From NCBI GenBank assembly GCA_049297695.1, contig JBAQUT010000004.1:1170-65169 (forward strand): 64,000 bases of DNA, in the 5' to 3' direction. Of this stretch, positions 1-54,240 are shown piece by piece. The notes beneath the pieces are model-generated. The model did not search any database. It had not been told where the DNA came from and saw nothing but the letters and a program-made list of their open reading frames with translations. The stretch is from Alphaproteobacteria bacterium (GTDB lineage: Bacteria; Pseudomonadota; Alphaproteobacteria; UBA2136; UBA6156). Each line of letters begins with the position of its first letter. Within the stretch, counting starts at the first letter, position 1. A program made the translations under genes and the position numbers.

Positions 1-401
1 TTCGGTATGACCGTACTCAGCGTTTGGTGATTACTGATCGCGTGGGCGGCGAACCCCGTGCCACATCTGGTGTGGGTGTGGGTGGTAAATCTCCGGCAGG
101 ATACGATGTGGCGGTCACCGAAGCCGTGCTGAAAGAGGCCATTGTGAGCCTGCACTATGATGAAGTTCCCTTGGTAGATGCCCTTGAAAATATTGTGAAC
201 CAAGCAGGCAAAGGCCAATGGCGCCTGCGCATGTATGCTGGCACCGACCAAGTGCTGAAACCCGCCCACGTGGAAGAACCCTTTGGTGTAGCGGTGGAGC
301 GTATTTTGCGGGTGTTTAACTTGAAATACGAAATTTTCCCCGGCGGTAAACTGATTGTGGTGACGGCAGGGGATAGCTTTGGGTTTAGGGGAGTTCAATG
401 A
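1..401 (+). CDS. TcpQ/PilL-like type IVb pilus biogenesis protein, C-terminal part (5' end lies outside window)
   Basis: The open frame runs off the left edge. Its stop overlaps the secretin start (ATGA). Its C-terminal ~80 aa (..GKLIVVTAGD) resemble the C-termini of the lipoproteins at 11201 and 13938. Confidence 0.55.
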   Translation, partial: RYDRTQRLVITDRVGGEPRATSGVGVGGKSPAGYDVAVTEAVLKEAIVSLHYDEVPLVDALENIVNQAGKGQWRLRMYAGTDQVLKPAHVEEPFGVAVERILRVFNLKYEIFPGGKLIVVTAGDSFGFRGVQ

Positions 402-2323: not shown

Positions 2324-2390
2324 ACACTCCCTGTCAGGCGTGTATTCGTAAGTTCGGGTATAAATGAGGGAATAAACAGAGGAGACCTCC

Positions 2391-3059
2391 ATGAGTTTTA
2401 TGTCCAAAAGCCGCCAATGTAACAGCTCCACGGCTGGCTATACCATTGATCAAACCATCTTGATCGTAGCCATTATCGCCATTCTGGTAACCCTGATTAT
2501 CATCTCGGTGGGTTGGCAGCTGATCAACCGCACCAGCGGTACCAAATTAGCCTCACAATTCAAACAGATTGAAGATGCCAACGGTTCGTTCTATTCCAGC
2601 TTCCGTGTCTGGGTGGATGAAGCCTATACGGCCCCCGCAACCGGTGCTGTTAACAACATTTTGGCTTTGGCAGGTGTAGCTACTACGTGGCAACAAACGG
2701 TACCATTAGCCCAACGCCGCAACTTTATCCCCGGTTTCCGTATCAACGGCACCACCAACGTGCAACATAACTTCTCGTCGGGCGGTATCCTGAGCATGCA
2801 ACGCCTAACCAACCCCTTCGGTTTAACGGGTGAGTACTTTGTGGTGCAGTTCACCGGAGTACCTTTTAGTGAAGTAGAAGAAGCCGAGAGTGCCATTGAC
2901 GCTGGTAAAGATGATACCTTGCGAGATTACGACGCTGGTCGTGTGGTCGCAAGTACGGGCGCCTCATGCTTGGCAGCTACCGTAGCATCTCCTGCAACCA
3001 CAGCAACAGCTCCTGGTGTGTTGGTAACCGTGTGCTACGCTGCTAACCTGACTCAATAA
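2391..3059 (+). CDS. Type IVb prepilin (major pilin candidate, PilS-like)
   Basis: RBS GAGGAG. ~16-aa polar leader ending in Gly, followed by a ~25-aa hydrophobic helix (YTIDQTILIVAIIAILVTLIII). Two Cys near the C-terminus (disulfide D-region). Mature size ~205 aa. Confidence 0.7.
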   Translation: MSFMSKSRQCNSSTAGYTIDQTILIVAIIAILVTLIIISVGWQLINRTSGTKLASQFKQIEDANGSFYSSFRVWVDEAYTAPATGAVNNILALAGVATTWQQTVPLAQRRNFIPGFRINGTTNVQHNFSSGGILSMQRLTNPFGLTGEYFVVQFTGVPFSEVEEAESAIDAGKDDTLRDYDAGRVVASTGASCLAATVASPATTATAPGVLVTVCYAANLTQ

Positions 3060-3088
3060 CAAAAAATAATAAAAACAATGGAGATCAC

Positions 3089-5143: not shown

Positions 5144-5186
5144 TGAACGCCTGCATAAAAACAAACATAAAAACAGGTAGGCATTC

Positions 5187-6269
5187 ATGGGCCTCCAGAT
5201 AGGTAAATCAGGTCTTTCCAACAGCGATAGGATTGATTTTTTCAAAACCTTGGCAGGCTGGTTGAACGCAGGGGAGGGGCGTACCTCGGTATCGGAAGCC
5301 GTTGCCAACACCTGCGATGCCTTTGCCCACGACGAATACATAACCCTCCGCCCCAAAATGGAGATGATCAAACGCGAAGTTCAAGGGGCCCAAACCCAGT
5401 TTTATGAAGCCTTGAACATGGCGGGTTTGGGTTTTAAAAGCCAAGAAATATCCATCATTGAAGCCGCCGAAAAAAGCAACCAGCTCCGCTATGCCGTCCC
5501 CTCGTTGGTGAAAGCTATGGAGATTCAATACAACGGCCAAAGTGAAATGCGGATGAAACTGATGGGCCCTCTCATCATTGGCGTCATGCTTATCATTATG
5601 TCGATGGGCGTACTCTATTTTATGCTCCCATTGGTGGTTCAACCGGTGGTCGACCGTAACCCGGGTGCGATTGATAAATTTCCTTTCATTCTCCGTTATT
5701 ACTGGTACGCATCCGTGTGGATGCGGGCCAACCCGTGGATGCCCGTAATGGTAATTCTCATCCCACTTACCATTTACTTTGCTCGGAACTCTGCATTTCT
5801 TAAGCCCATCATGCAACGAATCATCATGGGGTGGAGCGTAAGCCGTAAATTAGTATTGGGGTTTAACAGCGTGATTGTAGTGTATTTTATGCCAGCCCTT
5901 GTCCGTTCGGGGCTCCCCACGTACCGGGTTCTCCAATATCTGGCAGATTGTATCAACAATCCCACACTGTCCAACATGTTTCGCATTGCTGCCCAAGAGC
6001 ATGAAGAAGGTATCCGCATGAGCCAAGCGTTGGAAAATATCCCCTTCCGCGCCTCGTTTGTAAATGCCATTTCGGCAGGCGAATCCACGGGCGCCATTGC
6101 CGACAGGGTAGAAGATTTACAAGCCCCCTACGGAGTGGAGTTGGAGCGGAACATCAAAAGTGTGGTGGGCACACTTAAGTTTATCGTGATGGGCATCCTG
6201 TTGCCCTTCTTCATCGTTTCAACTTACACTGCGCTGGTAGGGCCCATATTTGCCCTTATGGAGTACTAA
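5187..6269 (+). CDS. GspF/PilC-family inner-membrane platform protein (R64 PilR-sized, 360 aa)
   Basis: Polytopic with hydrophobic helices. Size and position directly after the ATPase are typical of T4P platform proteins. Confidence 0.7.
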   Translation: MGLQIGKSGLSNSDRIDFFKTLAGWLNAGEGRTSVSEAVANTCDAFAHDEYITLRPKMEMIKREVQGAQTQFYEALNMAGLGFKSQEISIIEAAEKSNQLRYAVPSLVKAMEIQYNGQSEMRMKLMGPLIIGVMLIIMSMGVLYFMLPLVVQPVVDRNPGAIDKFPFILRYYWYASVWMRANPWMPVMVILIPLTIYFARNSAFLKPIMQRIIMGWSVSRKLVLGFNSVIVVYFMPALVRSGLPTYRVLQYLADCINNPTLSNMFRIAAQEHEEGIRMSQALENIPFRASFVNAISAGESTGAIADRVEDLQAPYGVELERNIKSVVGTLKFIVMGILLPFFIVSTYTALVGPIFALMEY

Positions 6270-6271
6270 AT

Positions 6272-7405
6272 ATGGATATGGTTCTGCTCACCAAACGCGG
6301 CATCTCCTTCCAAAGGCTCAAACGGGGTGAGCAAACGGTTATATTGATACCCGCTCCCGAGCAAATTAAAATTTACAAAGATGTATCAGATACCTCGACC
6401 ATTGCCGAGCGTTATGGGTCATCCAGCCAAATACCCTTGTGGCGCCAGCAAGAAGGCCAAACGGTGGTGTACGGTATTTTACCCGAATCCCTCTCTCAGC
6501 GCCGTCAAGCCATGAAGGTGTATTTGGCCCATGATTTTGCCCCTTCAAATACCACGGCTTTTTATTATGTGATGGACCCCCGCTGGGTGGTACACGGCCA
6601 GCGGGAGGTAGACGACGAAGGCCGTGAAGGCTGGCAGGTTATTCTTATGAAAGCGCCGGATGGTGAAGGCCCTGCTGAAATGATCCAAGAATCAGCCTCC
6701 GAACTGATGATGGAAAACGCCGAAAGCCGTTTGGTTGTTGCTGTATATGAAAATATGGGGTTGCTGGAAGAACTGAAAGACAAATTAAAGCCTCTTTCTG
6801 TTCAACCCGTACCGTTTTCATCCCTCAAACCAGGCCCGCGGGCGCGCCCGTTGTATCTGCAACGGGATTTTACGCCGCTGATGCTGCTGGGTTCGCTCCT
6901 CGCGGCCTTGTGCTTGGTATCGGCTATATTTTATTGGATGATGTACTGGAAAGAAACAGCGCGTTTAGAAGACGAGATGGAGTTGGTTCGCAACCAGATT
7001 ATGAACATCCAAATCAACCAAAGCATCGGTAATTTAAGAGAGCCCGATGCCATGCTCTCCAGCATGCAAAAAGCCTTCAACCAAAAGCCATCAGCCATTA
7101 TGTCGGCCGCCTCTACCTTTGGTAAAGAATTTGGTGAGCTTGAACAGTTGGTGTTTGATACGGCTTCTAATAACAAAGCTGGCAACGAGGCTACGGCAGT
7201 ACGCCCCATTTTACCAGGCCAACACGTGGTGCAGGTTATGGTGAGTAAAATCACGAACAAGCTTTTGGTAGACCAAGAACGCCTGGCCCAGATTTTGGTA
7301 AACAAAACCCCGTGGATACGCCGAGTTGAAAACTTACCCCAAGGCCAAGCCGAATTGGTGATGGATGTGGTGCTGCAAACCGAGCAACCCGGAGAAACCC
7401 CATGA
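6272..7405 (+). CDS. Bitopic inner-membrane pilus assembly protein (cytoplasmic N-domain, one TM, periplasmic C-domain; BfpC/PilO-like architecture)
   Basis: Single TM LMLLGSLLAALCLVSAIFYWMMYW at mid-protein. ATG lies 2 nt after the previous stop. Confidence 0.5.
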   Translation: MDMVLLTKRGISFQRLKRGEQTVILIPAPEQIKIYKDVSDTSTIAERYGSSSQIPLWRQQEGQTVVYGILPESLSQRRQAMKVYLAHDFAPSNTTAFYYVMDPRWVVHGQREVDDEGREGWQVILMKAPDGEGPAEMIQESASELMMENAESRLVVAVYENMGLLEELKDKLKPLSVQPVPFSSLKPGPRARPLYLQRDFTPLMLLGSLLAALCLVSAIFYWMMYWKETARLEDEMELVRNQIMNIQINQSIGNLREPDAMLSSMQKAFNQKPSAIMSAASTFGKEFGELEQLVFDTASNNKAGNEATAVRPILPGQHVVQVMVSKITNKLLVDQERLAQILVNKTPWIRRVENLPQGQAELVMDVVLQTEQPGETP

Positions 7406-7923
7406 AGACAGGGATGACACGCGCCAGTTTTCGTAACACATGGGTTTTATCCACGCTGCTTATTTTGGGGCTGGCGTTCATGGCTTTTCAAAACGGCCAA
7501 TCGGAACAAGAAACCATTGCCAACAACACGTTCCAGCTGAATGCGTTAAGGTCGGAGCTCGACAACGCTGCCCGCCGCTCGATAGCCTTGGAAGAACTAG
7601 ATAAACTCACCATTAATGAAAAAACGGCAACACGGTTGGATATTTTGCGCCACTTGGGGTTAGAGCAAAGCGGGTATGATTTTCAGGTAAACGCCCGCCA
7701 AATGAAAACCGTAGGCGATGGCAACCTGTACCTGCGGGTTGTGAAATTGCAAATGGATTTACCTTACGGTGAAGCTATGGCGCTGGTAGACCGCCTTCAT
7801 GAAACCCGTAAAATCGTTATCAGTAAGATTGAAATGAAACGTTCCGGAAAACCCGGTGACAACGTTTATATGATTCTAGAAGGCACCATTTATGGGTTGG
7901 AGAAAAACGATGTTCAAGCATAG
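7402..7923 (+). CDS. Small N-terminally anchored periplasmic pilus assembly protein (PilP/GspM-like)
   Basis: ATGA overlap with upstream gene. N-terminal TM WVLSTLLILGLAFMAF followed by a coiled-coil. Confidence 0.45.
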   Translation: MKTGMTRASFRNTWVLSTLLILGLAFMAFQNGQSEQETIANNTFQLNALRSELDNAARRSIALEELDKLTINEKTATRLDILRHLGLEQSGYDFQVNARQMKTVGDGNLYLRVVKLQMDLPYGEAMALVDRLHETRKIVISKIEMKRSGKPGDNVYMILEGTIYGLEKNDVQA

Positions 7924-8503
7924 TTCTCTCATTCTTTTATCCCTTATGCCATGGGTTTATGCCAATGCCCAAAGTGTCGAGGCCGAATGGCGGGTTACCA
8001 ACACAGAAAGCCCGACAGTTGTACCAGCTTACGCGGGGCAAGCTAACCCGTTTCCCACCATTACCGAGCAGGTGGTTGTTGTAGCCCCAACCCCCGAGGT
8101 AAGTGAAGCCGACCTTAAAAACCGCGAGAAAGCCGATATTCTCCAGCAAGCCCGTAATATCATTAACGGGAACCAAGCGTTTGTAGCGAATTTGGATAAC
8201 ATTCAATTTGATGGCTACATGGAGGGTTTGCGAGGTAAAAAAGTGTTGATGAAAGGGTCTTGGATCGGTATCGGGCAAACAATCAATGTTCCCGTCAAAG
8301 GGGCTAAAAATGCCTATGCCATGCTGGAAAAACTCCAAGCGTTGGATGTTTCCTTGGCCAACCAAGTGAAAGCCGAGTTGGACGCCAAACTGATTAAAAA
8401 AGCCGTAACAGACATAAAAGTTGTTGATATTACAAAAGAGAAGGTAACCTTGGTAGAAGGTTCTCAGCGTTACGAGGTAAGAATAAAACCTTCTACCTTG
8501 TGA
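7910..8503 (+). CDS. Secreted periplasmic protein of pilus operon
   Basis: Signal peptide MFKHSSLILLSLMPWVYANA. GGAG RBS 8 nt upstream of the 7910 ATG. The listed ORF starts at 7892. Confidence 0.45.
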   Translation: MFKHSSLILLSLMPWVYANAQSVEAEWRVTNTESPTVVPAYAGQANPFPTITEQVVVVAPTPEVSEADLKNREKADILQQARNIINGNQAFVANLDNIQFDGYMEGLRGKKVLMKGSWIGIGQTINVPVKGAKNAYAMLEKLQALDVSLANQVKAELDAKLIKKAVTDIKVVDITKEKVTLVEGSQRYEVRIKPSTL

Positions 8504-8539
8504 GGCTACCTATAAGAAGAATGAAGGAGAGCCCGTACC

Positions 8540-9598
8540 GTGCAAGCCATGTTGATTTTCGCCCTGTTTGGAGCGTTCATGGCAGCCATTGCAGGTATTA
8601 TTTCATCGGCAACCGATAGTACTTTGCAAATGATGAAAAACCAAGTTGCCCAAGCACGGAGCTACTTTGACAGTGCGGAAAAAGTATGGCTGTACAACAC
8701 CGTACCCGCACACTTGCAAATTCCGTTCAATTCATGCCCCGATGGTACCAACTACGGGGTCCACGATGTCAAATCGTACCTGTGCCAAAACCAGATTGCC
8801 AAACTTGCCCAATGGTTGGGGTCTCAACAGGGCACCAAAGACCCTTGGAAAAACGATATTACAGGCTATGTCCTCCGCAAAGAAGTTCCTATTTACGCAT
8901 CCGCCCCCGATTACGTGGTGTCGGTACCCGTAACGGCCATGGTGTTGGTATCCCCAGGGCCCGACCACCGTTTGGCACCAGCGTTGCAAGCCGATATCAA
9001 CGCGTTGTCGGGCAGTTCTCAAATTAGGGATGTTTTGCGTATTGCGGCGCCCAACCCAACGACATGCTCTGTGGCAACCGACGGTAGTTGTGATGATATT
9101 GTCCATACCTTCAGCGATATGAGCGCCCAGCAAAACCGTTGGCGTGGTGTTCAAGCGGCGGTAGACCGTATTGGTTCGGCCGCTGGCCGAGATTACGGCA
9201 TGCAGTTTCGCAGTTTCCAATCCCAGCTTCCGGGTATTTATGCGGCCAACATTGCAAGCTTGTTCGATGCCAGCGGTAACTTGTCGGTAACCGCAAGCAA
9301 CATCAACTTGTGGAAAAGCCAAGGCGTATCTCCCCCCACGTTTAACGATATCGACTTGAACGACCCCGAAGAGCGTGTACGTATCGGTGTGGATGCCGAG
9401 TTTGAGTATATTACCAACTCCGTCAGCGACGGCGGGAGCAGCTTGGCGTTGGCGTTTGCCGTATCAGATAGCCCAGGCGGTTACCAGGATGTTCTCACCA
9501 TTTCCCTTTCCAACAGCGCAAGCCCTTGGGGACTGTGGGATACACAGGGTGGTGTTCTTAAGTACCAAAACATTGTCAGTTTCACCCTCGTCAACTAA
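8540..9598 (+). CDS. Membrane-anchored periplasmic protein, possible pilin-like or minor pilus component
   Basis: GTG start 9 nt after an AAGGAGAG RBS. N-terminal hydrophobic helix MLIFALFGAFMAAIAGIIS. No canonical Glu5. Confidence 0.4.
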   Translation: MQAMLIFALFGAFMAAIAGIISSATDSTLQMMKNQVAQARSYFDSAEKVWLYNTVPAHLQIPFNSCPDGTNYGVHDVKSYLCQNQIAKLAQWLGSQQGTKDPWKNDITGYVLRKEVPIYASAPDYVVSVPVTAMVLVSPGPDHRLAPALQADINALSGSSQIRDVLRIAAPNPTTCSVATDGSCDDIVHTFSDMSAQQNRWRGVQAAVDRIGSAAGRDYGMQFRSFQSQLPGIYAANIASLFDASGNLSVTASNINLWKSQGVSPPTFNDIDLNDPEERVRIGVDAEFEYITNSVSDGGSSLALAFAVSDSPGGYQDVLTISLSNSASPWGLWDTQGGVLKYQNIVSFTLVN

Positions 9599-9608
9599 GG
9601 AGATACGT

Positions 9609-10703
9609 ATGAGCCACAAACCGTTCTTGTCCAAAGCGGGTTTTTCACTCCCCGAGATTATCCTTGTGGTGTCGGTCATGGCCATCATCGCCAGTTTGTC
9701 GGCCCCTCCCTTGATTGAGTTTATGAAACGTCGGGATATCCAGGTGGAAGAAAACACCCAAAACGAAATCGTGAAAGCGATGAAACTGTACTTGGCGGAT
9801 AGAAATACATTGCCTGCCGATACCAGCCTCACATGGGCCGACGAAGTTGCCCGTTACACCAATCTTTCGGCCCAGCAGATTGCGAACGATAAATGGGGCA
9901 AACCCCGTGTGTATGTGCGGTTGGTGGTTACCGAAACGTTTTTGGGTACGCCGGTGGATATTTTTTACGTAACTCTTCACTCATCAGGCCCCAATCGTAA
10001 GGCCGAAGGCGGGGCCGCCACCGCAGGGGGCGAAACCATTGCAAACAGCGGTATTTCAACCAGCAGCAACAATTTTGATGCCCTGACCTCGACAGGGTGG
10101 TGGAAAAACAAGGCAACCGATACCGTCCGGATTGATAGTTTTGTGGCGGCACAACCCGCTGTCGACGACATGATGATTCGCTTCACCGATTACGCCGATA
10201 AAATCGCAAAATACAACACGTCGCTTGAACGCTTGCAACGGATCTCCGAAGCTTTGGAGGTGTACTCCACAACCAAATATAACGAGGCAGCCATTGCTTG
10301 CATGACCGTGCCTTGCACGCCATCGGCCGAGAAATATATTTACTATCCCCGCTCGAACGACGGGGCCACAAACCCAGCCAGTTACTACGGAAGCAACACC
10401 GCAACCGACTTAACCACCTACAACAGCGGCAACGCTATTTATAACAGCGATACCGACGATACCAACCGACGCACCCACATGATTAACTTGATGCGGATTT
10501 TGGGGCTGCCCGATGAATACTGCTGCAATGCCATGGAAAACATTACGGGCACAAAAAACGAAGTTCCTTTCTTCTACTTCAGCAACCCTCGCCCACGTAC
10601 GGCCGCGGGCTGCGGTACCCGGCCCGACCCTGCTGTGGGCCGTACCTTGCCCGCCCGTATGACTGTGAAAGGCATTAACGAGGACACCAACGTGTGCGGC
10701 TAA
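9609..10703 (+). CDS. Minor pilin / PilV-like protein with class III (prepilin) signal
   Basis: RBS AAGGAG. N-terminus MSHKPFLSKAG-FSLPEIILVVSVMAIIASL has the G/F cleavage motif with Glu5. The upstream extension to 9375 is rejected because it overlaps the previous gene. Confidence 0.7.
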   Translation: MSHKPFLSKAGFSLPEIILVVSVMAIIASLSAPPLIEFMKRRDIQVEENTQNEIVKAMKLYLADRNTLPADTSLTWADEVARYTNLSAQQIANDKWGKPRVYVRLVVTETFLGTPVDIFYVTLHSSGPNRKAEGGAATAGGETIANSGISTSSNNFDALTSTGWWKNKATDTVRIDSFVAAQPAVDDMMIRFTDYADKIAKYNTSLERLQRISEALEVYSTTKYNEAAIACMTVPCTPSAEKYIYYPRSNDGATNPASYYGSNTATDLTTYNSGNAIYNSDTDDTNRRTHMINLMRILGLPDEYCCNAMENITGTKNEVPFFYFSNPRPRTAAGCGTRPDPAVGRTLPARMTVKGINEDTNVCG

Positions 10704-15662: not shown

Positions 15663-16034
15663 ATGAAATTATCGTCCAACGCCCTTCTGACTGTAGCCTT
15701 AGTGGCTGTTCTAGTACTGGTGGGAACAGATGTACATGCCCAAACAACTGGTGTTCTTTATACAAAAACGCGTGATTTAGTTACTGGAAATATTGGGTTC
15801 TTTATTGGCCTGCTGCTTGCAGTATGGGGTATCTGGACTTGGGTTGTAAAACAAGAAACCATGGCTGGAATTTTTATGATTGTGGGTGGTGTTTTGATTA
15901 CCATTTCTCCGGGTGTACTTAACTTTATGAGCAGTATTGTTAACCCTGTTGCTAAGCTTGGTGCAACATCACTCACAGAAGTTAAAGGTTCTAATGAAAC
16001 TAAAGATTTGATTGGTATTGGTAGTGGGCAGTAA
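15663..16034 (+). CDS. VirB2/TrbC-like T4SS pilin (paralog 1)
   Basis: RBS AAGGAGAAA. Signal peptide ending AQ plus two hydrophobic helices. 123 aa. Confidence 0.7.
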   Translation: MKLSSNALLTVALVAVLVLVGTDVHAQTTGVLYTKTRDLVTGNIGFFIGLLLAVWGIWTWVVKQETMAGIFMIVGGVLITISPGVLNFMSSIVNPVAKLGATSLTEVKGSNETKDLIGIGSGQ

Positions 16035-16346
16035 ATGATTAAAAAACTAAATATCTTGTGTGTGGGGCTGCTGATATTTCAGCCCCTTTTTGTTTTTGCG
16101 GCTGAGTCTGATGTTGCAGGTAGTCGTGAATTGAGTGCATTGAGCAATGTTGTAACAGGCCAGTTAGGTTTTTTTGTAGCCCTTGTGTTGGCCATATGGG
16201 GTATTTGGAAAATGTTTGTGTCTGGGGAAAATGCGGCAGGTTTCATTCTGTTAATTTGCGGCGCGGCTCTAACAATATTCCCTGGGATATTTAATTTTGC
16301 TGAAAGTATAGTTGTTCCATTTGCAAAAGCGATTACAGGTGGTTGA
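16035..16346 (+). CDS. VirB2/TrbC-like T4SS pilin (paralog 2)
   Basis: ATG immediately follows the previous stop. Same signal-plus-2-TM architecture, 103 aa. The mature part (GFFVALVLAIWGIWKMF..) aligns with paralog 1. Confidence 0.7.
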   Translation: MIKKLNILCVGLLIFQPLFVFAAESDVAGSRELSALSNVVTGQLGFFVALVLAIWGIWKMFVSGENAAGFILLICGAALTIFPGIFNFAESIVVPFAKAITGG

Positions 16347-19583: not shown

Positions 19584-19943
19584 ATGATTAAGCTTGGAAA
19601 TGTGACTATGGATGCCGAACGTTTAAAGTCGGTTATTCAAACCTTTCATGATGATCAAATTGAAGAAATGGCCTATTGGTTTTCATCGACCCTTGGATTT
19701 GGGTTACCCGAAGGTCATTCAAATGTAAAAGAAGCTCTTCTTTCTATTATTGATGAGAAAAGGATTCATCCAGAACTTGCAACAGCTCTTTACGCTGCGT
19801 TTATTGGTATGCGCATAGAAGAACAACGTGAAAAAGCACCAGAGAAGAAGCATTTTCGGATAACACGATTTGGTATTGTTGAAAAAGAAACGTCAAAAAC
19901 TTTCCGTATTGTTGATGATGGCCGAGATAATGAGCGCAGTTAA
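19584..19943 (+). CDS. Hypothetical protein, AT-rich islet gene
   Basis: Strong RBS AAGGAG. Clearly lower GC than flanking genes. Confidence 0.55.
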   Translation: MIKLGNVTMDAERLKSVIQTFHDDQIEEMAYWFSSTLGFGLPEGHSNVKEALLSIIDEKRIHPELATALYAAFIGMRIEEQREKAPEKKHFRITRFGIVEKETSKTFRIVDDGRDNERS

Positions 19944-20077: not shown

Positions 20078-22246
20078 ATGGCCAAAGCCAAACCTACCAA
20101 GGCCGCCAAGCATGTTGCCAAGGCTGCGCCTAGTGAGGTGGTTAAGGCGAAGGCCAAACCTGTCGCCATGCCTGCCGAGGACGACCTGAAAGCCGCCGAC
20201 GAAGGCTACCAACTGGCCCGCAAAGATGCCGCCAAATACCTTCACAGCCGCCGCCAAGCCATGTTTGCCCTCTCCCGCCGTTACCATTTGGAACCCGAGG
20301 ATGTGGAGCAAGAAGGTTTTGAAGTGCTGCTCACCTGTTTGCGGGATTTCAAACCCCAGTACACCAAAGCCAACGGCGAAACCATTCACGTACTGTTCAA
20401 CACGTTTTTTGGCAGCCGGTTGGATGGCAAGGCGCTGGAACTCCGTAACCGCGACCCCGAATACCAAGCCCGCCAAGCGCATTTGGAAGATATGTCGGAG
20501 GCCGATAAAACAGCTTTCCGCCAAGCCCCGCCGTTGTTAGTGCAACATCTCGACCAACAAACCTCCATGCAAGAACACCTTACCAGCGAGGCCTCCAACG
20601 CCCGCCGCAGCAATCAGGTGAGCACGGCCATGAAGATTGCCCACGACAGCTTCATTGATAAAAAACTCAACCAGCTGATAGCCCAAGAGCGCGATGACAA
20701 ACGCCGCGCTGCCCTGATGCATGTGAAGGTGGGCGGGGTGAGCAGCTTTGACGACATCGCCTACCACTTTGGGGTGACGGACAGCCGCGCCAGCCAGATT
20801 TTGAACGACCTGATGGACGCCTTTTACGTGCAACGCCTGCTGGATGGCGACCTGAAAAGCGTGGCGTACGATTGGAAAAAACTGAAAATGCAGCCCAAAC
20901 GCGCCGCCCGCCTTCTGGAAGACGCCGTGGCCAACAGCACGCGGGAACGCGCCAGCGAAATTGTGGCCGCCTTTGTGGCCGATTACCCCGAGGCGAAAAG
21001 CCTGCCGTTACCGGAACTCACGTCGGAGGCATCTGCCTCCGCCCCCGCCAAACTCACCACCGCAGGCACGGGCCGCACCTTTGCCGACCCCTTCACGGTG
21101 GACGACGATGCCCGCTACCCTTTGCTGGGTCTGGAATGGCGCAGCGTAGCCAGCCTGAACCCCCTGCACGTGCCCTTCCGCAACGGAGCAGATGACGCCC
21201 ACGAGCAACCCCACATCACCACCATCATGGCCACCGAGGCCGACCAATGGCCGCTCATCATCACCCACGAAGGCGGCGTGGTGGATGGCCAGCGCCGCTG
21301 GCATGCTGCCCAGCAGCGCGGCAAAGATAAAGTGCTATGCTTGGTGCGCCAAGTGCCCGAGCACGATGCTAAAATCATGCGTGTAGTAGCCAACTTGCGG
21401 CAAATCAAAGCCGACAAAATGGACGTGTACTTTGCCATCAGCGCCCTCAGCGATTTAGGGCTCTCCCAACAACGCATCGCTGCCGCCCTTGGTATTTCGC
21501 GCCCCAACGTGATTGTTTACGCCAAGGTGAAAGACAAAGCCACGCCCAAACTCCGTGCGTTGTTTGAGGATGGCTTCATCCAAATTACCAACGCCAGCGC
21601 CAGTGTGGATTTACCCGCCACCGCCCAAGACGGCATGGCGGAGTTCATCCGCAAACACGGTGCCACATGGGGCAAAGGCCCCCAGTTTAACGAGGTTTAC
21701 GAGGCCGCCGCCTCGGGCAAACTCTCCAAACTGGCCGCCATGCAACCGGAGCCTCAAGCCCCCAACACGACCGCAGCACCAACTCCCGCATGGGCGCCCG
21801 TTCCAGTATCCACCGCCATGGCCGTGGCCCCGGCCGACCAAAACGTGGTGCAAGCCCTGCGCAACCGTCAAACCGCCATGGAAACTGCCCTGCGCGACGC
21901 CGAAACCTGGGGCCAACAGCGGGAAGGGGTAGTAGCCCGCCAAACGTCAGAAATCACGGATTTAAAACAACAACTCGATGCCCTCAAGCGCGAACTTCAA
22001 GCCCACGACTTGCTGAAATACGGCGACGAAGCCACGGTGGCGGGTTTGATGAAAGAAATCAAAGGTTTTTACGCGGTGGTGGAACGCTTGGCTGGCGCCA
22101 GCTACCAACTGGATAAAGCCCATAAATCCCTGCGCGGCCAACCGTTAAGCTACAAACAAATCCAAGAGGTTCAAACGCTGACCGACACCATGGAAGCCAG
22201 CCTGTCCGCCCTGCGGGTGGAGCTTTCCAGCAAAAACCGTCGTTAA
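20078..22246 (+). CDS. Fusion protein: Lys/Ala-rich tail plus sigma-70 region2/region4-like plus ParB/Srx-like nuclease domain plus coiled-coil
   Basis: N-terminal AKAKPTKAAKHVAKA repeats. EDVEQEGFEVLLTCLRDFKP is region-2-like. VSSFDDIAYHFGVTDSRASQIL is a region-4 HTH. DGQRRWHAAQQ is a ParB GxxR motif. Confidence 0.6.
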   Translation: MAKAKPTKAAKHVAKAAPSEVVKAKAKPVAMPAEDDLKAADEGYQLARKDAAKYLHSRRQAMFALSRRYHLEPEDVEQEGFEVLLTCLRDFKPQYTKANGETIHVLFNTFFGSRLDGKALELRNRDPEYQARQAHLEDMSEADKTAFRQAPPLLVQHLDQQTSMQEHLTSEASNARRSNQVSTAMKIAHDSFIDKKLNQLIAQERDDKRRAALMHVKVGGVSSFDDIAYHFGVTDSRASQILNDLMDAFYVQRLLDGDLKSVAYDWKKLKMQPKRAARLLEDAVANSTRERASEIVAAFVADYPEAKSLPLPELTSEASASAPAKLTTAGTGRTFADPFTVDDDARYPLLGLEWRSVASLNPLHVPFRNGADDAHEQPHITTIMATEADQWPLIITHEGGVVDGQRRWHAAQQRGKDKVLCLVRQVPEHDAKIMRVVANLRQIKADKMDVYFAISALSDLGLSQQRIAAALGISRPNVIVYAKVKDKATPKLRALFEDGFIQITNASASVDLPATAQDGMAEFIRKHGATWGKGPQFNEVYEAAASGKLSKLAAMQPEPQAPNTTAAPTPAWAPVPVSTAMAVAPADQNVVQALRNRQTAMETALRDAETWGQQREGVVARQTSEITDLKQQLDALKRELQAHDLLKYGDEATVAGLMKEIKGFYAVVERLAGASYQLDKAHKSLRGQPLSYKQIQEVQTLTDTMEASLSALRVELSSKNRR

Positions 22247-22413: not shown

Positions 22414-24315
22414 ATGGCCCCAAAAAACCTAGGCTCGTGCGCGCATCTCATCACCGTTGTGGTGGTGGTGCTGTCTCTCACACTCTCTACACTGGTGCCG
22501 CAGGCGGCAGTGGCGGGCGGGTATTCCGGCAGCTACGAAAGCGGCAACCCCTCCCGTGGTAACTTGGGTGGATTTATCCCCAATTATGGCGGCGAGAGCG
22601 AACTTTTCAGCGTTAAATCGAGTAGTGGCGTCGGCGCAAACCTGGGCTGCGGAATGATGAACTACATGGATTTCGTCAAAGCCACGTTCAATGTGTCGGA
22701 TATGGCTGATCAGTTTAAGGGTATGATGCAAACATTTATGGCTAAGATTTTGTTAACATATTTAATGTCATTTCCTCCCATTGCAGCCGCATACGATGCC
22801 ATTAACTGGTTGGCCGATGCTAAGGCTAAGGTGTTTAACCAAAGTTGCGATATTGCCGAAGCCCGTAAAGACGGCGCCAAGTTGTACAAAGGGATTTGTA
22901 ACGATGCGTACAGCGCAGCAAAAACAGGTGATTGCACGAATATAAATTCTGTTGATCCTATGAGAGCCATCATGTTTTGCGAACAAGCGTTGAAAGATGG
23001 GCCTGATGTCTTCATTACCCGCTGCATGGCAAACTCGGAGCCTTTAAAACCTTTGATTGCTGCGGCTGATAAGGCTCTCCAACAGGTTAAAGAGGAGTTT
23101 TTTGGTGATCCTGTAGGTTGTCATAGAGGAGATATCTGCGACAGTGCAGAGGCTCCAGGTGCAGGAAGCAAGGTTGTAGCAGGTTGCTTGGCCATGAGTT
23201 ACATGCCTCGGATTTGTTTTGAAGCAAATGGAAGTCTTGGAAACAAGGGTATGGGTGGTAGTAAATGTGTTGGAGGTAAACGGCGTAAGCCACCTATCTC
23301 TATGGATGGAGTAACTCAAGCCTTTATCCAATATAGCATGTACACGATGGATGCCTGTGGGCGTGTGTGGGATGATATCCGCAAGGCCGACCCCAATATG
23401 GAAGCTTCTACCATTGAGAAAATTGGTACTGAGGCCATTGCTTTAGCTAATACTGACCAACTCACAATGTCCTCCAACCAAGTGGCACCATTAGCCCAAG
23501 GACCTCTGAAATTAGCCTTTACCGATATGTCTCTTGTTCTGAAAGCGTTTGGGGCGACGGCAACGAACGAATCCCGCAACAAAATGCTCCAAGATTATGT
23601 GGATAACGAGCTGCCGGGGATTGATTTGAACGGCCCCAGCAAAGAGTTGTTGAACCCCTTGCGGATGTGCAAATTTGTGGCGGAAGCTGCCCGTGCTGAA
23701 ATGGCGTTGCAGGGTAAAAACGCTCAGATATCTGATCCAGAAATGGGCGGTAAAGTGGATGCTGCCCAGTTCTTCAACCTTCCCAGCACAGGAGAAACTT
23801 CTGACAAGTTGGCGGCCGATGGGTTGGATGCCCAAACAGCTGCCCTGATGTTGGAATATACCTTTGGTTACATTGTGAATGTTCAAGGTGGAATTAACAT
23901 GACCAACCCTGTTGCTATGTCTAAGTTAGCGTTAAGTTCGGGCAGAGTGTGGGGTGATTGGGCGAGTGATAGAGGTATGGATGTTTCATGCATGGGTATG
24001 GATAAAATCTTGGACTATTTAAATGGTGTAATTATAAAAGCTCAAACCACAGCTGGGTCTCAAAATGTAACTAGTGGAAGTACCACAACCAAAGAAGGTG
24101 CAGATACAAGTACAAAAGCATGTAATGCACCTATTGAGGCTGTTAAAAAACAATCGGAAAAAACATTTGATTATTTAGAAAAGTATTTTAAAAGCTTAAA
24201 AGATAAAAATACGTTGTGGTGTTCTAACCGCCCTAAACTCCAAGAGCGCAACAGGCAGTTCTTTACCCCCGAGAACACCTTTGCCCCCACTCGCTCGGAT
24301 GCAGGTAACCTGTAA
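22414..24315 (+). CDS. Cys-rich secreted or membrane-anchored protein (633 aa), compositionally AT-rich
   Basis: N-terminal hydrophobic anchor. About 18 Cys. GC drops sharply from ~22.7 kb to the 3' end. Confidence 0.6.
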   Translation: MAPKNLGSCAHLITVVVVVLSLTLSTLVPQAAVAGGYSGSYESGNPSRGNLGGFIPNYGGESELFSVKSSSGVGANLGCGMMNYMDFVKATFNVSDMADQFKGMMQTFMAKILLTYLMSFPPIAAAYDAINWLADAKAKVFNQSCDIAEARKDGAKLYKGICNDAYSAAKTGDCTNINSVDPMRAIMFCEQALKDGPDVFITRCMANSEPLKPLIAAADKALQQVKEEFFGDPVGCHRGDICDSAEAPGAGSKVVAGCLAMSYMPRICFEANGSLGNKGMGGSKCVGGKRRKPPISMDGVTQAFIQYSMYTMDACGRVWDDIRKADPNMEASTIEKIGTEAIALANTDQLTMSSNQVAPLAQGPLKLAFTDMSLVLKAFGATATNESRNKMLQDYVDNELPGIDLNGPSKELLNPLRMCKFVAEAARAEMALQGKNAQISDPEMGGKVDAAQFFNLPSTGETSDKLAADGLDAQTAALMLEYTFGYIVNVQGGINMTNPVAMSKLALSSGRVWGDWASDRGMDVSCMGMDKILDYLNGVIIKAQTTAGSQNVTSGSTTTKEGADTSTKACNAPIEAVKKQSEKTFDYLEKYFKSLKDKNTLWCSNRPKLQERNRQFFTPENTFAPTRSDAGNL

Positions 24316-24392: not shown

Positions 24393-26387
24393 ATGGCGCG
24401 GCGCAAGCAACACACCAGCATTGTGCCGCCGCAGGGCATCCCCGCCGTGGCGTTGCGGATTAACCTTGCCGAGGGCGAACACCCCAGCCAGCTTATCGCG
24501 TTTACCAGCCTGCATAATCTATCAGCTATCAACCCCGAAGCCGAAACGCTGTTGCTGGAACTGCCCGTAGCCCCACTCACTGACGGCCACCATCATATGG
24601 AGGATGAAGGCTACAAAGCCGCCATGGGCCAAGCCGACATATGGCCCCTTGCCCCCGTGTTTGTGCGGGATGTGGCGGGCCGCGTGGTGCACACGGGATT
24701 GAATCCGCTTCCCGTGCCCCCACCGTTCCCCATCATGCCGGAAACCTGCCAGTACGTGCCGCCGGAAACCGAAGGTTACGGCCTGTTGGATAAAACGTTT
24801 TTCACCAGCTTCCGCACGCTGGAGTGGGGTTACGGCGAAGGCACGGTGCTCACGGGTCGCCCTACCTACACCGCCCATGCCCTGTACCCCGCCCCCCAGC
24901 TGTACCCGTACAAGCTGCGGGTGGATAGTTTCTATCAGGATGGCTTCCGCCTGCCCCAAGTGGAGCGTTTGTACGTGCAGCCCTCAAATCCCTTGGAGGC
25001 CACCAAGCACGGCGATGAGCTGATAGCCCGCTGGAACGCCCGACCCGCAGGGCAAACGTACCAAGAGTTTTACGAAGCCAACGAAGGCGACGCGTGGTTT
25101 GAAACGATGTTCCAAGCAGGCTGCACGGTAGTGCCCACGCTGGAAGCCACCAACGGCAGCTACGTGGTGGATGATGCCTACGGCTTGGTGGATGCCTGGC
25201 CAGGCTGCGTGGTAGAAGGTTTGCACGAGGTGGCGGATTACAAACCAGATGCCAGCCCTGCGGGCACCATTGTGGAGGTGCTCCAACCCGGCTACGCCAC
25301 CCGTGCAGGTGTGGTGCCCGCCAAGGTAGTAGCCAGCGATGGCAGCGGGTATGTCTCCCGCGTGGGAGATGTACCCGAACCCATGCAGCCCGACCCCCAA
25401 CTCCCCCACCCCCGCGTAGGCAACTTTGCAGGCGTGTGGTTGCCTACCCATCCCGGTCATTTTGAGCTTCCCGCCCTGTGGGATTGGAACGCCCAAGGTC
25501 ATTTTCAGCAAATGGCTGGCCCCTTGTGGGACCCCGTGCATTACACCTACACTAGCACCCCTCGCATCCTCAAAGCCTTCCGTAGCGTGGAGGCCAGCAC
25601 CCCCCACCAAGCGCCGGTGCCGGAAGATATGCTCCCCCGCTTTCACCCCGTGTGCGGCCTTAAAACCTACGATACCTTCAACACCGCCACCGCCCGTATG
25701 CGAGGGTTGCAGGCAGGGGCTTCTCCGTTGCATGATACATGGATTGATGCCGTGCCCTTGGGCCGCACCGTGGCCGATGTTGGTTACCATCCATTGCCCC
25801 CCGCGTTGGAGTACGAGCTAGACCCTGCGGTGTTTCCCAACCTCAGTCCACGGAACATCACCGCCGAAGCAGGCGCCAACCTTGCGCCTGTTATTACCAG
25901 CATGGTGACAGCGGAAGAAGCTGCTAAACTCATGGTCATCCATGCCGAACCTGACCGCCGGTTCATGCTCAACCCCACAAACTTTGAAGGCGGATACGGG
26001 TTAGAACGCTTCACCCAACCCGAACCACCTACCGAACGCCAACCCCAAGGCTGGATGATGTTGCCCGACATAACCACCAGCGATTTGATGGTGAACGTGA
26101 AGCGGTTTTTCATGAGCAAAGCGTATGTGGATAGGTTGAAAAAACTCCACCCCACCTTGTACAAGCAGTTTTACGTGTTTCGTGAACAAGCTTTGGCGTG
26201 GCGCCGCCTGCGCCACCGGTTGGCCCGCAAGTACGTGGGGTGGTATCAACATATGTGGTGGTTTGGGCACACACCCACCCATACCGAAACACAGGTACGG
26301 GAACAGCTAGAATACCGAATGTTGGAGGCTGAACGCAGCCTTAAAGCCCAAACAGGCTTGATGGTAAGGGATTTTAAGAGGGAGTAG
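24393..26387 (+). CDS. Large hypothetical protein (664 aa), no TM or signal peptide, Trp/Pro-rich
   Basis: GGAGG RBS. Continuous ORF in operon orientation inside the T4SS module. Confidence 0.55.
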   Translation: MARRKQHTSIVPPQGIPAVALRINLAEGEHPSQLIAFTSLHNLSAINPEAETLLLELPVAPLTDGHHHMEDEGYKAAMGQADIWPLAPVFVRDVAGRVVHTGLNPLPVPPPFPIMPETCQYVPPETEGYGLLDKTFFTSFRTLEWGYGEGTVLTGRPTYTAHALYPAPQLYPYKLRVDSFYQDGFRLPQVERLYVQPSNPLEATKHGDELIARWNARPAGQTYQEFYEANEGDAWFETMFQAGCTVVPTLEATNGSYVVDDAYGLVDAWPGCVVEGLHEVADYKPDASPAGTIVEVLQPGYATRAGVVPAKVVASDGSGYVSRVGDVPEPMQPDPQLPHPRVGNFAGVWLPTHPGHFELPALWDWNAQGHFQQMAGPLWDPVHYTYTSTPRILKAFRSVEASTPHQAPVPEDMLPRFHPVCGLKTYDTFNTATARMRGLQAGASPLHDTWIDAVPLGRTVADVGYHPLPPALEYELDPAVFPNLSPRNITAEAGANLAPVITSMVTAEEAAKLMVIHAEPDRRFMLNPTNFEGGYGLERFTQPEPPTERQPQGWMMLPDITTSDLMVNVKRFFMSKAYVDRLKKLHPTLYKQFYVFREQALAWRRLRHRLARKYVGWYQHMWWFGHTPTHTETQVREQLEYRMLEAERSLKAQTGLMVRDFKRE

Positions 26388-26493: not shown

Positions 26494-27933
26494 ATGGCCG
26501 ACCCTTTACTTCCCCAACAGCCCAAAACCCCGTCTGAGGGCGGGATGAACATTGTGGAGCGTCTTCGGGAACTTCCAACTCCTGCCAAAGCCGCGTTGGG
26601 CGTGGTGGGTATGGGCGTGTTGTACTTGCTGGTGGGCGGCGGCGGTGATAATGCCGTGCAACAAGGCGCTGCCGTGAACACCACCAGCCAAGCCGCGTTG
26701 CAGCAAGATGGCCAGCCTCAAGGCGATGGCGTGTTCAGCGGAATCGAATCCGACAGGCCCGTGCTAATGCAAGGTTGGTTGGAACAAAACCGCCGTGAAA
26801 TGAGCGAGCTGAAAGAAACGATTCAAACCAAGTTTGACGAAAAAGACAAAGCCTTGGCCGATGCCTTGCAAAACAACGCCGACCTGCAAGCCCAAATGCG
26901 CCAAATGATGGCCGATTTTACCGCCGAAGTACGCAACATTCAAACCAGCAACCAGCGGGACAAGGAAATGCTGGACCAGCTGGCGGAAGAGCAACGTAAA
27001 CTTCAGTTGGACGCCCCTGTGGATGGCGTAACAGGCGTAGGCCCCGTGATGCGCACCCAAAAACGGATTGAACAAACCCCCTTGGGCGGCGGTGGAGGAG
27101 GGCAAGTGCAGGGGCAGCCCCTGTTAGCCCCTTTAGGGGCGGTGGCCGGTAGGGCCACGCAAAGCAACGGGGCTGCCATGGCCACGGTGTCGGGGGATGG
27201 TGATGGGGTAGAGCCTGTTCAAAACCTGCCCTTCGTGCCCCCTTTGGGCTTCATTAAAGGCACGCTGTTGAACGGGGTGGATGCTTTGGTGGGAGGGCAA
27301 CCCACGCCGTCGTTGGTCCGTCTTTCGGGCAACTACAAAACCGCCATGGGCACCACCGTGCAGTTGGATGGTTGCTATGCTCTGGTTGAATTTCAAGGCG
27401 AAATCTCCACCGAGCGGGCCGTGGGTAAACCCGCTCGCATGACGTGCGTGTACCCCGACCAAGGGGCGGTTACTTACAGTTTGTCGGGGTATGTGGTGGA
27501 TAGCGAAGATGGCATTATCGGCATCCCCGGTATCTTTTACGAAGGCGATGCCAGCCGCATAGCCGCCGCCATGATGGCCGACTTTGCCGCAGGCGTAAGC
27601 GCCGTGGTAAAAGACAGTCAAACCACCACCAGCGTGGATAGCGCCGGTAACGCCACCCAAAGTATTACGGGCAGCGAACTGAAGGGCGAGATTGCCGGTG
27701 GCGTGGAAAAAGCCGTGGGAAGTTTGCGTGATTACCTGCTGCAACGCGTAACCCGCGTGTTGCCGTTTGTGCGGCTGGATGCTACCCGCCAAGTGCACCT
27801 TGTGTTCCTTTCAGGCACCGAATTGCGGGCCGAAGGTTCCCCTTGGACCTTGCTGTTTGATGCCGAAGCGGCTGACCAAGCCCGTGCTGGCGCTGCGGCC
27901 CAAACACCATCTAACGAGAACAACGGAGGCTAA
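26494..27933 (+). CDS. VirB10/TraB-like bitopic T4SS protein
   Basis: Short cytoplasmic N-terminus, one TM, low-complexity linker, coiled-coil, then a C-terminal beta-rich domain. An alternative start at 26545 has a better RBS. Confidence 0.5.
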   Translation: MADPLLPQQPKTPSEGGMNIVERLRELPTPAKAALGVVGMGVLYLLVGGGGDNAVQQGAAVNTTSQAALQQDGQPQGDGVFSGIESDRPVLMQGWLEQNRREMSELKETIQTKFDEKDKALADALQNNADLQAQMRQMMADFTAEVRNIQTSNQRDKEMLDQLAEEQRKLQLDAPVDGVTGVGPVMRTQKRIEQTPLGGGGGGQVQGQPLLAPLGAVAGRATQSNGAAMATVSGDGDGVEPVQNLPFVPPLGFIKGTLLNGVDALVGGQPTPSLVRLSGNYKTAMGTTVQLDGCYALVEFQGEISTERAVGKPARMTCVYPDQGAVTYSLSGYVVDSEDGIIGIPGIFYEGDASRIAAAMMADFAAGVSAVVKDSQTTTSVDSAGNATQSITGSELKGEIAGGVEKAVGSLRDYLLQRVTRVLPFVRLDATRQVHLVFLSGTELRAEGSPWTLLFDAEAADQARAGAAAQTPSNENNGG

Positions 27934-27936
27934 CCC

Positions 27937-28383
27937 ATGAAACGTACCCTGATGCTCGGCACCTTGGTAGCCTTGGCTGGCTGCAAATACTATGGCAGCG
28001 CCCTACCGCCCGAATACCCCATGAGCATGGACGATGCCGCCAGCGTGGCCAGCGACATGGGCGCTGGTAGTGGTGGTGTGCAACGCTCGGTTATCAAACA
28101 AGGCGTGCGCCCCCGCATGGAGCGCCCCAGCTATTTGCCGGAAAAAGAACTGGCCATCGTAGCCCCGCCCAAAACCTTGCTGGTATGGACCTACCCCCAC
28201 GTGACGGACGACAACACCCGCGTGTTTGGTAACTGGAGCACAATTTTCCTGACCGACCGTTACGAATGGGTACGCCCCGGCAACGAAGTTGGTATGGCCG
28301 AAGACGATGCCGGAACCGATGCTGGCCGCCCCAACCTTGGCTCCAGCAAAGAAGCTGAAAGGATTATGCCCGTTAAAAAGTAA
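27937..28383 (+). CDS. Small lipoprotein (VirB7/TraV-like)
   Basis: Lipobox LVALAGC. GGAGG RBS. Located immediately before the VirB4 ATPase. Confidence 0.55.
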   Translation: MKRTLMLGTLVALAGCKYYGSALPPEYPMSMDDAASVASDMGAGSGGVQRSVIKQGVRPRMERPSYLPEKELAIVAPPKTLLVWTYPHVTDDNTRVFGNWSTIFLTDRYEWVRPGNEVGMAEDDAGTDAGRPNLGSSKEAERIMPVKK

Positions 28384-54165: not shown

Positions 54166-54240
54166 TGGCGTCCCCGACAGGAATCGAACCTGTATCTGCC
54201 GCTTAGGAGGCTACCGTACTATCCATTGTACTACGGGGAC
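54166..54240 (-). tRNA. tRNA-Arg (anticodon CCU)
   Basis: Cloverleaf folded by hand: 7-bp acceptor stem, GTAC D-stem, T-arm ACAGG/TTCGATT/CCTGT, anticodon loop CU-CCU-AA. One A.G mismatch in the anticodon stem. No encoded CCA (the genomic sequence 5' of 54166 on the plus strand is not tgg). Confidence 0.8.

Follow-up and report, generated by a model that had tools for sequence, protein, structure and literature searches.

A candidate TraH-like protein with an intragenic GC drop, encoded by the fastest-diverging gene of an F-related type IV secretion cluster in uncultured Alphaproteobacteria

The closest described counterpart of the gene studied here is probably TraH (PF06122; F TraH, IncHI TrhH) of the F-type type IV secretion systems (T4SS). 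F TraH is a protein rich in cysteine (it has 7), with a signal peptide and a C-terminal coiled coil. Together with TraF, TraU, TraW and TrbI it forms part of an outer-membrane-associated complex, and it is indispensable to both piliation and transfer. It is located in the periplasm or on the inner face of the outer membrane and not surface-exposed, and the TraH proteins of F and pED208 cannot stand in for each other (PMC7555446, PMC10939261). The gene in question is the open reading frame (ORF) 22414-24315 of a stretch of 64,000 nucleotides, hereafter the window, which is part of a 74-kb contig (JBAQUT010000004.1) of an Alphaproteobacteria metagenome-assembled genome (MAG). Its product of 633 amino acids (aa) is identical to the MAG protein WAZ18_00340, annotated there as ‘hypothetical protein’, and its GC content drops abruptly within the gene. 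On the whole, we lean towards the explanation that this is a Sec-exported, TraH-like structural subunit which evolves fast in place and whose shift towards AT is inherited.

Two more described proteins deserve comparison. TraN, the mating-pair stabilisation adhesin of F-type systems, resembles the 633-aa protein in its length of ~600 aa, its signal peptide, its many cysteines, its location in a T4SS and its variation between systems; however, the fold of the 633-aa protein is predicted to be alpha-helical and its conserved cysteine framework differs. The closest relative of the family in an annotated record is BDT74088.1, a 432-aa hypothetical protein of the Comamonadaceae plasmid pOS401 (AP026971.1). 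It is likewise exported and contains cysteines, is encoded in an F-like T4SS with adjacent type IV pilus genes, and the TraC of its plasmid is the best plasmid match of the window TraC. Unlike the 633-aa protein, it is 200 aa shorter, has 7 cysteines, is plasmid-borne and lies in a TraF/TraG-type neighbourhood.

An exported cysteine-rich protein and its similarity to TraH

The gene and the parts of its product are as follows, with GC3 denoting the GC content at third codon positions.

22414..24315 (+): ORF with ATG start, complete, 633 aa; exported, cysteine-rich, putatively TraH-like T4SS subunit
22414..22515 (+): Sec signal peptide, residues 1-34, from hydrophobicity; cleavage by signal peptidase I predicted to follow A-V-A
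22516..22635 (+): leader of low conservation, rich in Gly, Ser and Tyr, residues 35-74, with GC3 like that of the flanks
22636..22866 (+): TraH-like block, residues 75-151, the most conserved part of the family, from hhalign, family alignment and hydrophobicity
22648..23268 (+): conserved cysteine framework, residues 79-285 (C79, C145, C162, C204, C242, C258, C285)
22707..24243 (+): low-GC3 tract from a change-point scan, both edges within the ORF
23281..24312 (+): hypervariable, mostly helical C-terminal half, residues ~290-633, from an AlphaFold2 model and alignments

The initial annotation had described about 18 cysteines following a signal or anchor sequence. The signal peptide holds: the N-terminus contains the sole strongly hydrophobic segment of the protein (residues ~4-35, Kyte-Doolittle >1.6), followed by A-V-A and then G, a site of the signal peptidase I type that was read off the sequence. 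Cleavage sites of the ..AQ or ..AHAQ type are found at the same position in the family alignment, and a signal peptide starts each of the 34 aligned members; the product does not qualify as a lipoprotein. The count of cysteines has to be corrected to 17, as C9 lies in the signal peptide and 16 remain in the mature part. Each of the seven cysteines of the framework is kept in 89-100% of 61 family members. Compared with the orthologue, the leader between signal peptide and conserved block differs by an indel of 18 residues.

When 5.8 billion proteins were searched by word index, the sole results were the 633-aa protein and P0002, a relative at 53% identity; the same type of search with the family alignment gave these two closest proteins only. 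HMMER over 1.84 billion representatives yielded 40 proteins at E <= 1e-3 (cluster representatives at 50% identity), which mostly measure 516-677 aa, besides three shorter fragments and two longer proteins. Scans of the 633-aa protein and 34 family members against Pfam and NCBIfam, even at E <= 10, gave nothing relevant, and megablast and tblastn of gene and protein against the plasmid collection found no match.

The initial annotation had proposed a search against TraN, TraH and TraU profiles. The family profile was compared with the Tra proteins of F by hhalign. Here, TraH matched (E = 9.7e-5, probability 58%, in a GCGG...SC register), while TraN (0.3%) and TraU (0.2%) did not; among the 34 F Tra proteins TraH alone fell below P = 0.08, with the other 33 at P >= 0.08. 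The same register was obtained with a 2-sequence TraH profile (E = 3.6-5.8e-5, probability 65-71%), with a 9-sequence profile covering F, IncC, IncHI, Vibrio, Acinetobacter, Burkholderia, Aquicella and Rhodanobacter types (E = 5.5e-5, probability 66%) and with Rhodanobacter TraH alone (P = 0.039). The word-indexed search with F TraH found only relatives of at least 78% identity and was useless for building a diverse profile. In the window protein the matching block reads LGCG...NYMDFVKATFNV...AK..LTYLMS.P.IAAAYD.....DAK..VFNQSC, and the pattern of the most conserved family block (residues ~75-151) is LGCG...FN...AK..LT...S.P.IAA.FD......NA....F.QSC. The block contains a moderately hydrophobic helix (~108-126).

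Several traits are shared with TraH: a Sec signal peptide, multiple cysteines (7 reported for F TraH, seven conserved in the family), a hydrophobic helix past the GCGG motif and long, coiled-coil-like C-terminal helices. The GCGG...(about 65 aa)...SC block near the N-terminus, which aligns in the same register, may be added to these. The location of the gene in a T4SS module, as the initial annotation had it, is borne out by TraB/TrbI at 26494, an F-type TraC/VirB4 at 28421, an SLT protein at 18752, weak TraE, TraL and VirB2-pilin matches and a lipoprotein at the position of TraV. In other respects the protein differs from TraH. It is ~175 aa longer and has 16 mature cysteines rather than 7, the similarity is confined to ~70-130 residues, the neighbours of the family gene are a sigma/ParB-like protein and a 664-aa protein instead of TraF/TraG, and its cluster is chromosomal and extremely divergent.

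Additional insight can be gained from the pOS401 protein. BDT74088.1 aligned with the family at a probability of 96% (hhalign, E = 3.6e-9, 133 columns), and its gene is flanked by a weak TraF-like and a weak TraG_N-like gene and lies upstream of the coupling protein. The order TraF-TraH-TraG was seen in the diverse plasmids with F-type mating-pair formation (MPF_F) that were fetched, one stretch showing TraF-TraH and ending before the next gene. Therefore, BDT74088.1 occupies the place of TraH in F-type systems.

A number of observations weigh against a TraH assignment. The hhalign probability was just 58-71% over 68-73 columns, and the more diverse 9-sequence profile brought no gain in significance. 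The PF06122 and NCBIfam TraH models match neither the 633-aa protein nor any of the 34 members at E <= 10, and a direct comparison of BDT74088.1 with TraH by BLAST and hhalign showed no link. A TraF-TraH-TraG(N) neighbourhood was absent from the window and the ~30 related loci and was present, through weak Pfam matches, for the pOS401 relative only; in the window no TraF, TraU, TraW, TraN or TraG is recognisable, and the block holds no recognisable TrbI partner. The AlphaFold2 model of the protein is nearly all alpha-helix, with two long C-terminal helices (512-549 and 575-617), at a confidence (pLDDT) of 66 and a predicted TM score (pTM) of 0.63, but its pLDDT is below 50 over the conserved block. 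Finally, the PDB, which contains no TraH, gave no match in a sequence-profile search and nothing informative at the structure level. With moderate confidence, we call the 633-aa protein TraH-like and do not file it as a member of PF06122.

If the favoured explanation is correct, the product would be a disulfide-rich structural subunit, periplasmic or associated with the outer membrane and possibly serving pilus or channel assembly, of a deep-branching F-related T4SS carried on the chromosomes of uncultured Alphaproteobacteria. Residues ~75-285, i.e. the N-terminal third with the seven conserved cysteines, would be homologous to the N-terminal core of F-type TraH and would be where the protein docks onto the machine's conserved core. 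The C-terminal two thirds, helical and closed off by the long coiled-coil-like helices, would be lineage-specific and evolve very fast. That F TraH cannot be exchanged between F and pED208 fits such system-specific, fast-evolving contacts. What appears to be new is thus a strongly divergent TraH-like subunit, linked to TraH with moderate support, in an undescribed chromosomal lineage of F-related T4SS that is widespread in uncultured Alphaproteobacteria. This would give a first functional handle on a family without annotation (~40 clusters at 50% identity), by placing it as the TraH-like, fastest-evolving core component of this T4SS. It also points to a TraH module of greater age and plasticity than its F-specific label implies, and marks the part of the machine most likely to carry lineage specificity.

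Rapid divergence and a recurrent shift towards AT

With the conserved upstream gene as bait, 29 more loci were recovered. All of these are MAGs, mostly of unclassified Alphaproteobacteria, with contigs of up to 1.8 Mb (related clusters L022, L024, L030, L045 and L046 lie on contigs of 0.7-1.8 Mb), which indicates that the T4SS cluster is chromosomal. L024 (CERC01054422.1, a metagenome contig of 993,775 bp) and L045 (Proteobacteria bacterium UBA6503, 994,047 bp) share gene lengths, GC3 and hmmsearch scores and were counted once. Six of the MAGs (L027, L028, L029, L034, L041 and L044) bear the labels Pseudomonadaceae, Pseudomonas fluorescens, Blastochloris viridis, Pseudomonadales or Magnetococcales; their cluster genes are nevertheless close to those of unclassified Alphaproteobacteria MAGs. 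Either the labels or the assumption of a narrow host range for the cluster may be wrong.

In every locus with enough sequence (~30 MAG loci) the family gene directly follows the sigma/ParB-like gene, and downstream the order is family gene, a gene of ~700 aa, TraB, a TraV-like gene and TraC. In the cluster types examined, the ~700-aa gene is the immediate downstream neighbour of the family gene; in four distant loci it follows at a further 2.5-4 kb. The constancy of the position of the family gene within a conserved core cluster speaks for a structural component and not for cargo.

The family gene is by far the fastest-diverging gene of the cluster. Between the window and L018, identity is 85% for TraC, 80% for the TraV-like protein, 72% for TraB, 69% for the upstream gene and 54% for the downstream gene, against 29% for the family gene, in agreement with the initial suggestion of a variable T4SS component. 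In the case of L019 and L020, the respective values are 69/75% (TraC), 65/69% (TraV-like), 53/52% (TraB), 50/56% (upstream) and 40/43% (downstream), and the family gene aligns over ~90 N-terminal residues only; its C-terminal half gives no BLAST alignment with members whose TraC remains 69-75% identical. In the closest locus pair, dN (nonsynonymous divergence) was 0.16 for the family gene, 0.05 for the upstream gene and 0.03 for TraC, a ~3-5x difference. Synonymous divergence (dS) by the NG86 method is saturated, at levels which depend on codon bias, and dN/dS is thus mostly uninformative; where measurable over the whole gene, it was 0.18-0.55. Residual identity at 4-fold degenerate sites is near saturation in all pairs, so that ‘faster’ and ‘older’ are inseparable for the window and its orthologue L001.

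Across 378 locus pairs, the family gene had a median identity of 0.19 and the upstream gene one of 0.50. In none of these pairs was the family gene the more similar of the two, both identities were correlated (Spearman 0.67), and the closest locus pairs were the same for both genes. There is thus no phylogenetic discordance and nothing that points to a swapping of cassettes. As far as these comparisons go, the family gene appears to evolve rapidly in place and not as cassettes that move among backbones.

Regarding composition, the initial annotation had noted an abrupt intragenic fall in GC from ~22.7 kb to the stop, relative to the first 300 bp and the neighbouring genes. Computation confirmed this, and the drop is large. 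GC content in 200-nt windows starts at 0.57-0.60 (22.3-22.7 kb), falls to 0.32-0.52 between 22.6 and 24.3 kb and returns to 0.59-0.64 beyond 24.3 kb. The whole gene has a GC of 0.470 and a GC3 of 0.468, compared to a GC3 of 0.694 and 0.692 in the adjacent genes. At conserved 4-fold sites GC is 0.48 in the gene, 0.81-0.85 upstream and 0.74-0.81 downstream, which indicates a shift in codon choice beyond amino-acid content. The amino acids F, Y, M, I, N and K (FYMINK) make up 29% of the protein and 19-20% in the flanks.

A maximum-likelihood change-point scan on the third positions of the three genes located the low tract at nt 22707-24243, with a GC3 of 0.417 inside (513 codons) and 0.693 outside (1506 codons) and a log-likelihood ratio of 60.7. 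Support within 2 log-likelihood units (2-LL) places the 5' edge at 22668-22743 and the 3' edge at 24204-24252. The drop thus begins ~290 nt past the ATG, and codons 1-75 have a GC3 of 0.65 compared to 0.44 for the remainder of the gene (Fisher p = 8e-4). Flanking repeats or mobility genes were not found at the edges of the tract, and repeats in and around the gene were short, imperfect and at chance level only (24 nt at 75%, 16 nt at 94%).

The shift is not restricted to the window. In the syntenic orthologue L001, which is 53% identical, GC3 is 0.468 compared to 0.687 and 0.683 in its flanks, and the 4-fold sites between window and L001 are saturated (identity 0.30). Altogether, 25 of 28 loci had a lower GC3 in the family gene than in its flanks (mean -0.096, Wilcoxon p = 2.5e-7), and GC at first codon positions (GC1) was lower in 27. 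Large drops were seen in L031 (0.38 vs 0.72), L030 (0.41 vs 0.67) and L025 (0.51 vs 0.76), and L018, L019, L034 and L037 showed no GC3 shift. The sign was the same in AT-rich hosts with a GC3 of 0.2-0.45, e.g. L042 (0.14 vs 0.21) and L024 (0.35 vs 0.45), contrary to what exchange among hosts of differing GC would be expected to produce. That the shift recurs in so many loci, the orthologue included, suggests that low GC is a property of the gene. Judging from these sequence comparisons, it is best read as belonging to a fast-evolving gene, and not as the trace of a recent horizontal replacement.

Bacterial mutation is AT-biased, and GC-rich synonymous sites are kept by selection and/or GC-biased gene conversion. 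This suggests that such forces are weaker in the fast-diverging gene. In the favoured explanation, the family gene would be inherited with the cluster while its amino acids change ~3x faster than those of its neighbours. Both its synonymous sites and its amino-acid composition lie nearer to AT, most probably because codon selection and/or GC-biased gene conversion in homologous recombination, which hold the neighbours GC-rich, act poorly on a gene so divergent and possibly weakly expressed. The intragenic drop would then mark an evolutionary regime and not a recent insertion.

Replacement, surface exposure and other explanations

The main alternative, which we consider unlikely without dismissing it, is that nt ~22707-24243 were replaced, horizontally or allelically, by an allele of an AT-richer relative, with crossovers in the conserved 5' region and near the 3' end, so that the tract would be incompletely ameliorated foreign DNA. 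An old replacement before the split of window and L001, or occasional exchange among close relatives, is included here at the same low probability. Sharp compositional edges within the ORF speak for it. Moreover, the 5' edge lies at codons ~85-110 in the window and at codons ~13-43 in L001, and codons 1-75 are flank-like in GC3 in the window and not in L001 (0.53 vs 0.46 for the rest, p = 0.26). Other AT-rich ORFs occur in the block, among them insertions that lack a counterpart in L020 (19584-19943 and 31070-31492) and pilins whose L020 orthologues have normal GC3. The absence of the shift in four of the loci is also in favor of replacement.

Further points count against a purely inherited shift. 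Its size varies widely, from 0 to -0.34, and differs between close relatives (L028 with 0.54 and L030 with 0.41, at 76% identity), and the 28 loci are phylogenetically non-independent. In the family gene, residual synonymous identity tends to fall below that of the flanks, e.g. 0.10 +/- 0.04 vs 0.21-0.26 for L028 and L030. Variable shifts, differing 5' boundaries and low synonymous identity would also fit older or exchanged alleles.

However, the orthologue with the same GC3 means that any replacement predates its split from the window, and that the sites have since become saturated without amelioration. Exchange should also produce GC-rich outliers, whereas the shift goes in one direction in 25 of 28 loci, hosts with a GC3 of 0.2-0.45 included. 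With none of 378 pairs discordant, coinciding nearest relatives and no repeats or mobility genes at the edges, the proposal of a recombined or horizontally replaced 3' part, made in the initial annotation, is not supported in that form. For genome reading this carries a caution: a sharp-edged intragenic GC trough can mimic horizontal replacement, where the comparative data point instead to a recurrent, one-directional and gene-specific AT shift passed on with the operon.

A bolder idea, speculative and held with little confidence, extends the TraH-like reading. The protein would be a contact or specificity determinant of an undescribed chromosomal T4SS lineage, anchored by its TraH-like N-terminal domain, with its hypervariable C-terminal part engaged in an arms race or in co-evolution with a partner, and the AT shift would arise because a gene so divergent no longer recombines with its relatives and evades GC-biased gene conversion. 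If true, this would be a natural example of a recombination-cold, AT-drifting gene inside a recombining, GC-rich operon.

Somewhat less probable still, and in our view doubtful, is a surface-exposed specificity or contact determinant, similar to TraN, a VirB5-type tip protein or PilV, under diversifying selection from recipients, phages or predators, with the TraH-like block as a mere anchor. The product is exported, disulfide-rich and encoded by the most variable gene, its variation is greatest in the C-terminal two thirds, the block offers no recognisable TraN, VirB5 or other adhesin candidate, and in one pair dN/dS reaches 0.55 compared to 0.11 for the upstream gene. On the other hand, dN/dS over the whole gene stays below 1 wherever measurable, and in the pair L038-L048 it is no higher than in the flanks. 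The predicted model is helical and shows no beta-rich adhesin fold, and F TraH is described as periplasmic or at the inner face of the outer membrane.

The specific analogies drawn in the initial annotation fared no better. TraN identity was rejected on the nil similarity to F TraN in hhalign, the missing PF06986 match and the helical model. In the case of PilV, a shufflon adhesin or type IV minor pilin was rejected, as the signal is of the signal peptidase I type and not a prepilin leader; the protein has no N_methyl match, and the repeats are short and imperfect only.

The possibility of a secreted effector or toxin, i.e. cargo encoded by chance within the T4SS operon, is very improbable. 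A signal peptide, a cysteine-rich sequence, the lack of a family assignment and a foreign-looking composition would all suit it. However, the gene keeps the same position between conserved core genes in all ~30 loci, in hosts with a GC3 of 0.14-0.9, and cargo genes normally vary in presence and position. T4SS substrates normally lack Sec signal peptides, pertussis toxin being the noted exception, which also counts against an effector. On the fixed position, the conserved N-terminal domain and the cysteine framework, the effector reading was rejected.

Lastly, an artefact of amino-acid composition or chance is refuted: the window is heterogeneous (1-kb windows with a GC of 0.44 to 0.63), Gly/Ala/Val/Pro codons partly account for the high GC of the first 75 codons and the step within L001 is not significant, but the 4-fold sites, the change-point ratio and the replication across loci all speak against it.

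Neighbouring genes of the cluster

The divergent F-related T4SS block occupies nt ~11.2-34.6 kb (11201-34571) of the window. Its main genes around the family gene are the following.

15663..16346 (+): two tandem VirB2/TraA-type pilin paralogues of 123 and 103 aa (15663-16034 and 16035-16346), from weak pilin matches
20078..22246 (+): upstream partner gene, 722 aa, with weak sigma-70-like (TIGR02937), helix-turn-helix (HTH) and ParB_N matches
24393..26387 (+): downstream gene, 664 aa, no family match
26494..27933 (+): TraB/TrbI (VirB10-type), from Pfam and NCBIfam matches
27937..28383 (+): lipoprotein of 148 aa with an LAGC lipobox, at the usual position of TraV
28421..31015 (+): F-type TraC/VirB4 ATPase (TIGR02746, E = 1.7e-58, under the curated cutoff)

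The nearest plasmid relative of the window TraC is 25.7% identical (23-26% to plasmid TraC). The 722-aa upstream gene is conserved at 42-76% identity and is an unusual core component for a T4SS cluster; its product is possibly a regulator or a DNA-processing protein. The 664-aa gene downstream has no obvious signal peptide and ranks second in the cluster for speed of divergence (40-65% identity where TraC has 69-85%); its product may co-evolve with the TraH-like protein as a partner. The other large ORFs of the block were compared by hhalign with TraG, TraN, TraU, TraW, TraF and TrbC of F and Rhodanobacter and gave no convincing match, the best being the 722-aa gene with F TraG (P = 0.0014, probability 18%).

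In the T4SS block no coupling protein (VirD4/TraD) and no relaxase are recognisable, and its edges carry neither an integrase nor a tRNA, the sole tRNA lying at 54166-54240. Directly upstream of the block there is a type IV pilus gene set (398-10703), comprising a secretin (398-2323), a T2SSE ATPase (3089-5143), a T2SSF protein (5187-6269) and unassigned ORFs, with a GC3 of 0.49-0.62, below that of the T4SS core. Plasmid pOS401, with the nearest plasmid TraC, likewise has type IV pilus genes beside its F-like T4SS (T2SSE and an N_methyl pilin upstream). The missing coupling protein and relaxase together with the adjacent pilus set suggest that the machine may not be conjugative: the T4SS may be chromosomally inherited with a non-conjugative role, or its DNA-processing genes may be elsewhere or unrecognisable.

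The two pilins are 38% identical to each other and have a GC3 of 0.30 and 0.33. Their L020 orthologues, at 37-54% identity, have a normal GC3 of 0.76 and 0.70, so that the AT-richness of the window pilins is lineage-specific. The pilins lack the hypervariability of the TraH-like gene. Two small AT-rich ORFs, 19584-19943 (119 aa, GC3 0.25, no signal peptide) and 31070-31492 (140 aa, GC3 0.31, with a signal peptide and 4 cysteines), have no counterpart in L020, L018 and L019 and look like lineage-specific insertions into the block. At the place of the first, L020 has a UvrD-like helicase and a 163-aa gene, and L001 a weak AT-rich counterpart (29% identity).

As a whole, composition within the window is heterogeneous. 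Four ORFs of 103-140 aa in the T4SS block have an even lower GC3 than the gene 22414-24315, and among genes of at least 150 aa GC3 spans 0.41-0.75. A single one of the latter falls below it, the 190-aa ORF 50169-50741 on the reverse strand (-) in the chromosomal part (GC3 0.41, GC 0.43; flanking genes GC3 0.63-0.73). Past 34.6 kb, the window continues with housekeeping genes such as AcrB and threonyl-tRNA synthetase (ThrRS).

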